DNA of 62,870 bases, filler included, from Stramenopiles sp. TOSAG23-2 (Eukaryota): the NCBI GenBank assembly GCA_900128395.1. It is 14 parts of 14 records of this genome, joined end to end, with 100 filler letters (N's around TTAATTAATTAA, not from the genome) between each part and the next. Parts side by side here need not be neighbours in the genome. Positions count along the whole stretch, not along the records: positions 42,797 to 47,416 come from LT650847.1; 13 more parts are not named here. The stretch is one strand, 5' to 3'. The notes beneath the pieces were generated by a model. The model did not search any database and was not told the DNA's origin. It saw nothing but the letters and a program-made list of their open reading frames with translations. This document shows positions 42,797 through 45,390 of this stretch, piece after piece; position 1 is the stretch's first letter; every line of letters starts with the position of its first letter. Made by a program: the position numbers and the translations under genes.

Positions 42797-44178
42797 ATCG
42801 TTACTGCGTGAAGAAGATGCTGTTCCTTCTTGTCCTTTTGAACTCCCATTACTACCTTTGCTATTATTTCTTCCCCCAGCTGCGCACAAATGTCGTAATT
42901 GATTGACAACTACCATGTGTAAACCACCATGCTCATCCTCAAATGCTAAGGAATCTTTAAATCCATGGCTAGAAAAATGCAATGCACGATGACCTAGAGT
43001 AACCATATTGCGTAACGCCCTTGTCAAATTGGCTTCATAATTAACGTATCTTTTTCTTGGTATACTAGTGGAGCAGAAAAGAGAACGCCTAAAACTGGTA
43101 TTTGCTGTTGAATTCTGTCATCGAAAAATTTGTATTTTTGATTTTCTGATGTTATTTTCGGAGAATGCAGCGGTGAAGCTGTTGCCACAGGAATTTTTGC
43201 AATTGATATTTTTAAACCATTATTGTTATCATTATTGGTATTATTCGGAGTAACCCCACTAGAAGTAAATATTGTGGACTTTTGGTTATTATCCTTAGCA
43301 GTCATGGTAGCAATTGCAGTAGTTGCTTTGACTAGTAGAGAATCTCTACCAGGCTTGTTACTTGCAGTATTGTTATTATTACTATTATTATTATTACTAC
43401 TACTGGACGTTGCATTATCATTTGTAACATTAATAGCATCTTCAACTTTCAAATCATCATCATCCGTAAATGGTGAAATTATAAATGAATTTGCCCAACT
43501 AATACGATTTGCCTTCAATTTTTTAAATATTTTGCTTATGTCTACTTTCTTATTGGTATCATTTCCATCTAAACGTAGAAAATGTAATTTTGAATTTTTT
43601 GCAATAGTCGTAGTCATTTTTTCCAAGCATTCTTTTGATAAACTACATGATTCCAAATTTAAATCTCGCAAACTACCATTTGCTAGTATTAATTCATTCA
43701 ACTGTTGGGAATGTACAGATTTATTCAATGAATTCATCGATAGGTCTAAAGTTAATAATCCAGACTCATCGTCATTTTCATCATCGTTTATACATGCCAT
43801 AACCCACAATTTTGTTAGAATGACTTCAATTGCATGCGGTATAAATGCATTATCGCTCAAAATTAAAGTTTCTAAACATGAATCTTTATGCTCAAGCAAT
43901 CCTTTCTCCCCGCATAATTCTTTGCAAAATTCATATCCACCTCCAATGTTATTTTTGGACAAATCCAACGCAACTAAACACGGATTTTCGCAGCAAATTT
44001 TAATCAAAGCAGCAGCACCTTTATCGCCTAATTTGTTGCCACTTAAATCCAACCAACGCAACACACCTGTTTGTAAACCTTCCAATTCATTTAAACTCAT
44101 TGCAGGTAACGGCGTAATTGCAATTGCATCGCCTTCCGTTCCACCACTTACGGCAGCTTTCGGTGAAAATGGTGATAT
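42797..44178 (-). CDS. N-terminal part (RI-type LRRs + CHAT His half) of an LRR-CHAT-STAND protein; inverted segment with a frame break near 43025
   Basis: LRRs LRWLDLSGNKLGDKGAAAL, LVALDLSKNNIG, LETLILSDN, LDLSMNSL, LNLESCSL; then VLFSAPLV and, after the break, RALHFSSHG...LAFEDEHG; ends in GQEGTASSSRSND, which is duplicated inverted at 44179-44218. Confidence 0.75.
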
Positions 44179-45390
44179 AGGACAAGAAGGAACAGCATCT
44201 TCTTCACGCAGTAACGATAAAGGAGTTCAATTTGTTTTTGTATCTGCTTGCTACTCACAGAGTGCTGGGGAGGCATTTGTTCAAGCTGGTATACCACACG
44301 TAGTATGCGTGTCTGTTGATTCCAATTTACTGGACAAAGCTGCTCAAGAGTTTACACATGCATTCTATTTGTCCTTAGCAGTGGGTGGCACCGTCGCAGA
44401 TTCATTTGAAATAGGTGTTGAAGCAGTGAAAAGCGCACCACGTATGGCGAATGCAATCAAAGAAGGTGAGAAATTTTTATTATTACCACGTGATGGAGAT
44501 CACAATGTACCTATCTTCGCAAATGCCCCAATACGAAATTTGTCAAAACCTGGTTTGACAAGGACAAAGTCTGGGCAAAAGCTAACTCGCACATCTTCTG
44601 GCAGTTTTAGCGATCTTGGTAAATTGCTTCCATCAGTTCCAGATAATTTCCTAGGTCGTAATGTTGATATGTATCGTGTCATGGGATATACGAAAGAAAG
44701 ACGAGTTGTTACGCTCTTGGGTCCGGAAGGCTCTGGTAAAAGCGCCCTTGCAATTGCAACAGCTAATTATATAGATGAAAGATCAGAATCATTTATTGAT
44801 GGGATCTATTTCATACGATTGGCAGGCATTACAGGTGCAGAACTTGAAAGTACAATATGCGAATCGATTGGCTATTCAACTAGTAAGCGAAAAAGATTAA
44901 TTCAATATATGCGAAAAAAATCTCTGTTACTAGTGTTAGATCAAGTTGATACAAAGTTAGTCAGTTCAAAAGAATTTCGAAGTTTTCTACAATTGTTGTT
45001 AGATAAAACAAAAGCAAATGTTTTATTTACCTCAAAATCAAGAATTGGATTAACAAATGACGAGCAATGTTACTCATTACAACCATTATCAATTGAGGAT
45101 GAAGGTCGGTTATTTTTCTTACGCTCACCATTTCAAAGGCGAGAATGGTTAAGTAAAAGGAAAGTACCAAATGAAATTTTAGGCAACTCCATTCATAATG
45201 TCTGCAATGGAAATCCAGGTAAAATAGTTAAGTAAGTAACATTTTCTATCAACTTAAAACTGAAAAAATATATAGCCTCTCTAACATCACACATTCATAT
45301 GCTACTCTTCATAGAATTGCAAGGGAGATTGAGGAGGAAGTCTTTCAAGCAATGATTCAAGCAGAGGTAAATAGGAGAAAAACGTTTTGA
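44179..45390 (+). CDS. C-terminal part (CHAT Cys half + NB-ARC-like STAND NTPase) of the same protein; intron 45232-45314
   Basis: VQFVFVSACYS...AGEAFVQAGIPHVVCV...FTHAFYLSL (CHAT); FLGR, Walker A GPEGSGKS, Walker B LLLVLDQVD, sensor FTSK, GxP motif CNGNPGKI; spliced end KIAREIEEE...RRKTF*. Confidence 0.8.

Follow-up and report, generated by a model that had tools for sequence, protein, structure and literature searches.

The systems closest to the gene considered here join a CHAT protease, or an NB-ARC-type nucleotide-binding domain, to sensor or repeat domains. In bacteria, CHAT-NACHT/NB-ARC-TPR proteins carry a CHAT-then-NTPase module followed by TPR repeats, and the SAVED-CHAT protease is activated by ligand-induced filament formation (10.1101/2023.06.23.546230), which provides a precedent for a CHAT protease activated by oligomerisation. 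Fungal HET-Q2-like proteins fuse a CHAT (or S8) protease to a nucleotide-binding and oligomerisation domain (NOD), and canonical NOD-like receptors (NLRs) have an effector, a central NOD and C-terminal repeats. We analysed a 62,870-nt stretch of DNA (hereafter the window) from Stramenopiles sp. TOSAG23-2 (assembly GCA_900128395.1), in which positions 42797-45390, on record LT650847.1, had been predicted from the sequence to hide a gene for leucine-rich repeats (LRRs), a CHAT protease and a STAND-type NTPase. This interval covers only the 3' third of a single very large protist gene. The gene itself is genuine; in the window it is present in truncated and damaged form. Its order, ARM/HEAT, LRR, CHAT, NOD, end, is not the canonical NLR order.

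Continuity of the gene in an intact copy

A search with the plus-strand piece of the window recovered a protein from another assembly (P0017), which was then used to scan metagenome contigs and returned one locus, L001, consisting of 10.3 kb of an independent 30.9-kb contig. L001 carries a single uninterrupted reading frame of at least 2,110 aa, which runs off the start of the locus at its 5' end and in which ARM/HEAT-like repeats, LRRs, an Asn/Ser-rich linker, a CHAT domain (His then Cys) and a P-loop NTPase follow each other on one strand, with the motifs LRR...LHFSGHG...FVSACYS...GPEGSGKS...GNPGKIVK in this order. In the window, the corresponding coding sequence is found in three frames: minus strand 43024-44226 (ribonuclease-inhibitor (RI)-type LRRs, ending LIMKPI-stop), minus strand 42797-43117 (LHFSSHG) and plus strand from 44180 (FVSACYS, GPEGSGKS, LLVLD, GNP), and every motif that the original prediction had listed is present, LHFSSHG being on the minus strand. 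Window positions 43028-44182 match L001 4996-3845 (reversed, 98.96% identity), positions 42797-43025 match L001 5318-5090 (reversed, 99.1%), and positions 44179-45725 match L001 5279-6803 (forward); protein identity to L001 over the three window pieces is 377/383, 75/81 and 349/351 aa. As L001 is collinear in one open frame, flipping 42797-44178 gives one gene, in agreement with the proposal that the first 1.4 kb should be inverted. The ENA proteins P0017 and P0126, both from other assemblies, also continue through the flip point without a break and have the segment that the window lacks, P0017 reading ...LHFSGHGFKDSLAFEDEHGGLHMVVVNQLRHLCAAGG...KGVQFVFVSACYSQ... uninterrupted.

The features of this contig, and the joiner in front of it, are:

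42697-42796, no strand: contig joiner, a run of N with a TTAATTAATTAA core at 42741-42752 (13 such cores in the window), not genomic
42797-42836, minus: inverted-repeat arm 1, at the contig start, equal to L001 5318-5279; encodes GQEGTASSSRSND, in a disordered CHAT loop
42797-43025, minus: His half of CHAT, with HFSSHG at 42962-42979; L001 5318-5090, 99.1%
43026-43027, minus: deletion scar, 2 nt against 93 nt in L001 (4997-5089), net loss of 91 nt; segment kept in L001, P0017 and P0126
43028-44178, minus: C-terminal part of the RI-type LRRs (about 43561-44061), Asn/Ser-rich linker and start of CHAT (IPVLGVLFSAPL at 43066-43101); L001 4996-3849, Pfam LRR_6
44179-44218, plus: inverted-repeat arm 2, with the fold-back junction between 44178 and 44179; 40-mer present only once in L001
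44179-45231, plus: exon encoding the Cys half of CHAT (FVSACYS at 44237-44257) and the NB-ARC-type NTPase; L001 5279 onward, Pfam NB-ARC
44720-44743, plus: P-loop GPEGSGKS of the NTPase
44927-44944, plus: Walker B motif LLVLDQ of the NTPase
45209-45223, plus: GxP motif GNPGK of the NTPase
45232-45314, plus: predicted 83-nt intron (GTAAGTAAC...CTCTAAC...CATAG; GTAAGT...CATAG), from comparison with L001 and P0026
45315-45390, plus: predicted last exon (IAREIEEEVFQAMIQAEVNRRKTF, stop TGA at 45388-45390)
45543-45725, minus: remaining 3' part of a convergent gene of the fatty-acid-hydroxylase family (Pfam FA_hydroxylase match in the L001 frames)
46002-47416, no strand: AT-rich contig tail that does not match L001, where an RF-1-domain gene lies at this place

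Upstream of the fold-back point the L001 frame simply continues (...ENP/ISPFSP...), and the window therefore lacks the first 1,279 aa that L001 shows. These residues contain ARM/HEAT repeats, and full-length relatives start with SPRY, so that the LRRs do not form the N-terminus of the protein, contrary to what had been proposed. Within the window, the minus-strand LRR frame terminates in LIMKPI-stop (43024-43044), after which CHAT continues in a different phase. A frame break near 43025 had been expected to remove part of the CHAT N-terminus; it corresponds to the net loss of 91 nt, which deletes residues 25-56 of the CHAT-NTPase module, i.e. helix 30-43 and strand 49-54 of the modelled CHAT fold. 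A 1-nt homopolymer error in an A5 run near 43050 was considered as the cause of the break and is ruled out, as the frame is true up to LIMKP in L001 and the net loss is 91 nt.

At the 3' end, the in-frame stop at 45233 falls inside the predicted intron, and splicing of 45231 to 45315 maintains the reading frame and appends IAREIEEEVFQAMIQAEVNRRKTF ahead of the TGA. Compared with L001, the 83-nt interval has four substitutions and the following 76 nt have none. Across the splice point the relative P0026 reads GHPSKIVKIACE... (GHPSKIVKIA), and it ends 37 aa past the GxP motif. The convergent gene ends ~150 nt further on, thus no further exons fit. The protein ends ~32 aa past the GxP motif with no C-terminal repeats, like its short-tailed relatives, which bears out the suggestion that it has no C-terminal sensor. 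The 83-nt interval is also 78% identical over 86 nt to the 84-nt intron of the adjoining hydroxylase gene in L001 (7034-7117, minus strand), the removal of which restores HSGHHAFRPPTG joined to WSGIAVGP. Both introns, 78% identical over their whole length, read GTAAGTAAC...CCTCTCTAAC...CATATGCTAC...AG. From this resemblance, the two may belong to an intron family that is stereotyped or mobile ('introner-like'); the 62.9-kb window yielded no other copy.

Fold and conserved residues of the CHAT-NTPase module

On the intact L001 protein, Pfam CHAT (PF12770) matches aa 1669-1833 with 26.6 bits (E 4.9e-6, cut-off 24); on the window fragments, the Cys half reaches 16.2 bits, below 24, and the His half gives no match. 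For Pfam NB-ARC (cut-off 23.5) the scores are 30.7 bits with the window piece and 27.1 bits with L001, at aa 1931-2106; for LRR_6 (cut-off 23.4) they are 32.1 bits with the minus strand of window 43027-44226 and 26.1 bits with the L001 piece. The Arm repeat is above cut-off when the N-terminal 500 aa of L001 are scanned alone (26.8 vs 20.6 bits), and HEAT matches in L001 stay below threshold. A profile built from 48 family members finds the CHAT structure 8tl0 (2e-12), AfsR (7.8e-14), Sr35 (6e-9) and Apaf-1 (1.9e-4).

The AlphaFold2 model of the 470-aa CHAT-NTPase module has a pLDDT of 88.4 and a pTM of 0.88, with weak loops at 111-130, which holds the fold-back breakpoint, and at 247-263. Its top Foldseek match is the activated SAVED-CHAT filament (8tl0, E 2.3e-11). 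With VIA-align, residues 1-238 of the model superpose on SAVED-CHAT with a Z of 24.9 and a root-mean-square deviation of 2.1 over 196 aligned positions, and the Z to the DdvA CHAT is 14.9; residues 266-470 give a Z of 15-16 to Apaf-1, CED-4 and ZAR1, with a Z of 16.2 to Apaf-1 residues 116-326. In the model, H76 comes directly behind strand 70-74 and C143 behind strand 137-141, in keeping with the catalytic His and Cys of CHAT, which stand after the third and fourth core strands. The His and Cys segments do model as a caspase-like fold. The CHAT domain with both catalytic residues, as first proposed, is thus upheld by the Pfam score of the intact protein and by the SAVED-CHAT match. In 48 aligned members, the His is kept in 46, the Cys in 47 and the Walker B Asp in 41. 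The P-loop Lys (module residue 306) is kept in 37 of these 48, with Arg in eight and another residue in three; judging from these replacements, the NTPase of some members may not hydrolyse NTP. The window copy keeps both catalytic residues (HFSSHG, SACYS); its CHAT fold is not intact, module residues 25-56 being gone and the frame shifted. From conservation and model together, the CHAT protease of the family is apparently catalytically competent.

The proposed STAND NTPase holds only in part. The P-loop, the Walker B and GxP motifs and the NB-ARC score above cut-off all support it; the winged-helix part is missing. The NB-ARC match starts at profile position 16 and stops at position 196-197 of 248, and the structural match to Apaf-1 116-326 covers what we take to be the nucleotide-binding domain (NBD) and the first helical domain. 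Together with the ~32 residues that remain after the GxP motif, these limits indicate that the NTPase lacks the winged-helix (ARC2/WHD) domain. Because this domain is missing and the order is reversed, the protein is not classifiable as an NLR or as a canonical STAND switch; the likeness is one of logic, not of family membership.

Origin of the fold-back and of the deletions

The window strings together small unplaced contigs, with six-frame-stop linkers between them: the 13 TTAATTAATTAA cores stand ~4.7 kb apart, vs 0.20 cores expected by chance, and the pieces between them shrink steadily, from 4672 and 4670 nt down to 4615 nt. Pieces on either side of a linker are not genomic neighbours, since they are separate contigs. 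The gene fragment sits on one contig of 4620 nt (42797-47416), of which 42797 is the first base. The stretch is contained in 20 of the 24 listed sequencing runs, including six RNA runs with 0.27-0.56 of the sampled words, figures that have no bearing on the junctions, on splicing or on how strongly the gene is expressed.

The inverted repeat is exactly as first described: 42797-42836 and 44179-44218 are 100% complementary over 40 nt, an exact match far beyond chance in 4.6 kb, and the arms lie 1342 nt apart. Followed along the intact gene, the contig runs backwards from L001 5318 to 3845, jumps to 5279 and then runs forwards. The 40-nt 'inverted repeat' thus exists because L001 5279-5318 is read twice, once in each direction, and the 40-mer has a single occurrence in L001. 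At the junction, 44179-44182 (AGGA/TCCT) form a 4-nt microhomology common to both partners. Arm 1 corresponds to module residues 119-132, within the low-confidence loop of the structure model. A second fold-back is found on contig 33318-37962, which begins with an inverted copy of its own interior (33318-33382 vs 34357-34421; arms of 65 nt at 94%, of which 55 nt at the end are exact, with 974 nt between), so that two of the 13 complete contigs in the window start in this manner. A RING-finger-like frame (33696-34376, minus strand) lies inside the possibly flipped segment of this contig.

Further along the gene-bearing contig, between 45725 and 45726, the window lacks 981 nt of L001 (6804-7784), which make up most of the convergent FA_hydroxylase-family gene. 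The cut lies inside an exon, just before ...HHQYGL, and the L001 frame matches Pfam FA_hydroxylase with 44.8 bits. In the contig tail, no frame of at least 121 aa was found beyond 46104, and an Rfam scan of the contig gave no match. The tail also contains a perfect 22-nt palindrome (AAATCGACCCTAGGGTCGATTT) at 47028-47049.

We consider that the fold-back, the 91-nt deletion and the 981-nt deletion are probably chimeric artefacts of DNA amplification or assembly and do not reflect the structure of a working gene. The repeat arm coincides with the first base of the contig; a second terminal fold-back occurs among the 13 complete contigs; the fold-back is intramolecular and inverted, with 4 nt of microhomology at its junction; and all three structural differences cut conserved coding sequence. 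In a study of multiple displacement amplification (MDA), >85% of the rearrangements are inverted with intervening deletions, most of them being intramolecular, and >70% of the junctions show 2-21 nt of complementarity (Lasken and Stockwell, PMC1855051). We liken the fold-back to this pattern because it is intramolecular, inverted and microhomology-mediated. A fixed k-1 assembler signature in its simple form was considered for the arm and rejected, as the arm lengths differ between the two fold-backs (40 vs 55-65 nt), which itself counts somewhat against a plain assembly artefact. Other points also weigh against an artefact. Amplification of this assembly's DNA is an assumption. The contig differs from L001 by three to four structural changes in 4.6 kb (the fold-back, -91 nt, -981 nt and the unmatched tail from 46002), which is a lot for sporadic chimeras and would also fit a rearranged, decaying duplicate. 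Beside the catalytic His, the window has Ser in place of Gly, at a position that is G in 44/48 relatives, C in 3/48 and never S. The 15 substitutions from L001 comprise nine non-synonymous vs six synonymous differences, a ratio that hints at relaxed constraint. Finally, the non-coding flanks of L001 are 77-88% identical to the window, and L001 may, from this divergence, represent another strain.

Taken as genomic, the arrangement would be a recently duplicated, rearranged and decaying pseudogene copy of the LRR-CHAT-NTPase locus, with an inverted segment and two deletions, lying at a different site of the genome from an intact L001-like copy. Several independent lesions within 4.6 kb, a tail (46002-47416) unlike the continuation of L001, a G-to-S change at a near-invariant glycine and the nine non-synonymous vs six synonymous differences all speak for such a copy, and real fold-back duplications with microhomology also come from replication template switching. 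However, an arm that is the first base of its contig, together with a second contig bearing a terminal fold-back, points to a systematic process rather than to the history of one locus, and 15 substitutions are too few to gauge constraint. A frame ending LIMKPI-stop was sought in other assemblies and gave two matches at E<=1e-30 (56% and 48% identity), neither of them near-identical (0/2), a weak negative as gene callers or length limits could hide such a frame. On balance we find a genomic pseudogene copy unlikely. Far less credible still is a DNA switch in which inversion of the 1.34-kb segment between the 40-nt repeats would turn the gene on or off. Perfect inverted repeats do flank a segment whose inversion restores the reading frame; yet the 40-mer occurs once in L001, with no second arm upstream of the LRRs, where the frame continues (ENPISPF...), the upstream 1,279 aa of the gene are wholly missing in the window, the arm lies inside coding sequence and at a contig end, and no recombinase gene was found nearby in the frames of the window and of L001.

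The inverted arrangement is accordingly best taken as a warning about the assembly, not as a biological feature worth pursuing. Genes on these contigs can be flipped, truncated or frame-broken, at least two contigs begin with fold-back inversions, and gene models and pseudogene calls from them need read-level checks.

Two other contigs of the window deserve mention. A collagen-like frame of ~1,490 aa (38259-42696, minus strand) lies on a separate contig, runs into the contig end and is unlinked to the CHAT gene; its features are long collagen-like runs of G-X-Y, a block that occurs twice and, near 42312-42527, Cys-rich tandem repeats of 108 nt. The record at 52236-56850 has internal N gaps that divide it into 52236-52518, 52568-53025 and 53117-56850; its piece ends have 26-37 nt in common with 5632-5668 on another contig, which therefore represent a repeat found on several contigs.

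A family of giant protist proteins and its closest relatives

A phmmer search of the CHAT-NTPase module against 1.84 billion representatives gave 15,733 matches at E<=1e-3, with 1,206 clusters at <=1e-10 and 290 clusters at <=1e-30. In many of these matches the module stands at the extreme C-terminus of proteins of 2,000-3,300 aa. SPRY is found at the start in six of the ten long members scanned, followed by Arm, LRR_6, CHAT and NACHT/NB-ARC in order, and LRR_6 precedes CHAT and/or the NTPase in 7 of the 12 first matches scanned. The LRR-CHAT-NTPase order thus recurs in many proteins and is not unique to this gene. Both named members are stramenopiles, Platysulcus tardus (EP00753_P003470, here P0001) and Mucochytrium quahogii (UniRef100_A0A7S2RUY4, here P0032). 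P0032, of 2,466 aa and labelled 'B30.2/SPRY domain-containing protein' in UniRef, is collinear with L001 over LRR-CHAT-NTPase (L001 aa 1322-2108 vs 1747-2427, E 5e-81) and also matches over the region before the LRRs (3e-20). The L001 frame is offset from it by about 425-500 aa, which suggests that the true N-terminus of the L001 protein, probably with a SPRY domain, would lie upstream of the 10.3-kb locus.

Shorter relatives, with 36-45% identity to the L001 module, have the module first, and TPR repeats follow it in 10 of the 14 scanned and SH2 in one; two of the TPR-type relatives are named bacterial proteins from metagenome-assembled genomes (MAGs). P0010 and P0155 combine CHAT, a NACHT/AAA_16 NTPase and a C-terminal SH2 (Pfam 40.8 and 49.1 bits), an unusual pairing of a protease-NOD with a phosphotyrosine reader. 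In a language-model atlas the module is nearest to bacterial CHAT + AAA_16/NB-ARC clusters (scores 0.93 and 0.91). A quick tree of 63 module sequences, after removal of five near-duplicate cluster mates, separates 'module last' (22 rows) from 'module first' (18 rows) with only three changes among the 40 labelled rows; its backbone is weak (SH-aLRT 40), hence we infer no donor or direction of transfer. Overall, this is a large family whose members databases list only as hypothetical or SPRY-domain proteins. It appears undescribed in the literature searched, where no description of an LRR-CHAT-NOD or SPRY-ARM-LRR-CHAT-NOD order in protists was found, most subscription journals being outside the scope, so that this is not proof of absence.

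The intact gene thus represents a large group of related giant proteins from protists, which combine CHAT with an NB-ARC-type NTPase, have putative sensor repeats at the N-terminal side and lack a winged helix. The intact protein is arranged as [SPRY in relatives]-ARM/HEAT-RI-type LRR-disordered linker-CHAT-NB-ARC-type NTPase (NBD + small helical domain), and we tentatively propose, as a model with nearly even chances of being right, that it is an NTP-gated protease activated by oligomerisation. The SPRY/ARM/LRR solenoids at the N-terminus would recognise a trigger or restrain the enzyme. The C-terminal NBD would self-associate in a nucleotide-dependent manner, bringing the CHAT domains together and switching them on, much as filaments do for SAVED-CHAT and the apoptosome for caspase-9, and the His-Cys dyad would then cleave its targets, plausibly as part of defence or of regulated cell death. 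The analysis shows that the gene is continuous, which domains it encodes, how the CHAT-NTPase module folds and that the catalytic and P-loop residues are conserved; the sensing of a ligand, the oligomerisation and the role in the cell are putative. That substrate and partner are putative too weighs against the proposal, as do the lack of the winged-helix domain that canonical STAND switches use and the Arg in place of the P-loop Lys in 8/48 members.

Alternatively, the family could be real and serve as a large housekeeping scaffold. CHAT would then process specific cellular proteins, SPRY/ARM/LRR would recruit substrates or partners in the way that adaptors do in E3-ligase or trafficking scaffolds, and the NTPase would have a part in regulation or assembly. 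Both SPRY and ARM often serve as adaptors in protein interactions, the UniRef name of one member refers to B30.2/SPRY only, and the flanking genes are ordinary (FA_hydroxylase and RF-1 domain). L001 has a long conserved frame, in which the two sources agree at 99% and differ by only a few changes, and the material at hand gives no sign of the multi-copy hypervariable pattern typical of immune receptors. Against this, the closest relatives of the module are bacterial CHAT-NACHT/NB-ARC-TPR proteins, a class generally tied to conflict systems; the family is large and diverse, as the 1,206 clusters at E<=1e-10 indicate; and CHAT-NOD proteins have been proposed as activators of fungal gasdermins (10.1101/2021.06.03.446900). 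We regard a housekeeping scaffold as a serious alternative, if less likely than not.

A further reading, which we hold rather unlikely, is that SPRY-ARM-LRR-CHAT-NOD would be a widespread innate-immunity or cell-death sensor of stramenopiles or marine protists, with its order reversed relative to every characterised NLR: sensor repeats first, a caspase-like protease next and, at the C-terminal extremity, a NOD without a winged helix. It would derive from the CHAT-NOD module that bacteria use in CHAT-NOD-TPR. If true, an NLR-like machine would have been assembled independently once more, this time with its own protease in place of a recruited caspase. If the family acts in defence or regulated death, it would offer a tractable case for how protease-NOD machines were rebuilt between bacteria and eukaryotes, and for whether control of an enzyme by a NOD is possible from the C-terminal side.

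Of the known proteins, P0032 and P0001 resemble the L001 type most closely, with the Pfam order SPRY, Arm, LRR_6, CHAT, NB-ARC/NACHT and the NTPase at the C-terminal end. Both are uncharacterised, P0032 being 30% identical to L001 over 827 aligned columns and P0001 46% identical over the CHAT-NTPase module; compared with them, the window copy is truncated, inverted and frame-broken. The bacterial CHAT-NACHT/NB-ARC-TPR STAND proteins (for example HXU31953.1, a Thermoanaerobaculia MAG protein, and OQY28651.1, from a MAG of Cand. Cloacimonetes) have a homologous CHAT-then-NTPase module, with 36-45% identity to that of L001 in the ten TPR-bearing relatives scanned and with the catalytic His/Cys and the P-loop conserved; their module comes first and the TPR repeats after, whereas in the L001 type long repeats come first and nothing follows the module.

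The SAVED-CHAT protease of the type III-B CRISPR/CBASS hybrid (PDB 8tl0) is the best structural match of the protease half and is activated by oligomerisation, as we propose for the L001 type. It differs in being bacterial, in having a SAVED sensor that binds cyclic oligonucleotides and no SPRY/ARM/LRR or NTPase, and in a sequence identity of 17-20%. Within the 10.3 kb of L001, no gasdermin-like gene was found beside the protease gene, where there are only FA_hydroxylase and RF-1-domain genes; gene clustering of protease and substrate is not expected in eukaryotes. The fungal HET-Q2-like protease/NLR-like proteins encoded next to gasdermin genes share with L001 a CHAT (or S8) protease fused to a NOD and are proposed to trigger cell death by cleavage; the architecture described for them is tripartite, protease/NOD/repeats, and other orders might exist (10.1101/2021.06.03.446900). 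With the NB-ARC of Apaf-1, CED-4 and plant NLRs, the L001-type NTPase has in common the P-loop, the Walker B and GxP motifs, an NB-ARC score above cut-off and the structural similarity to Apaf-1, CED-4 and ZAR1 given above. Unlike them, it lacks the winged-helix/ARC2 domain and an MHD-type region, has no C-terminal repeats, and the LRRs lie N-terminal of the CHAT-NTPase module. The protein is a protease-NOD fusion with an unusual domain order.

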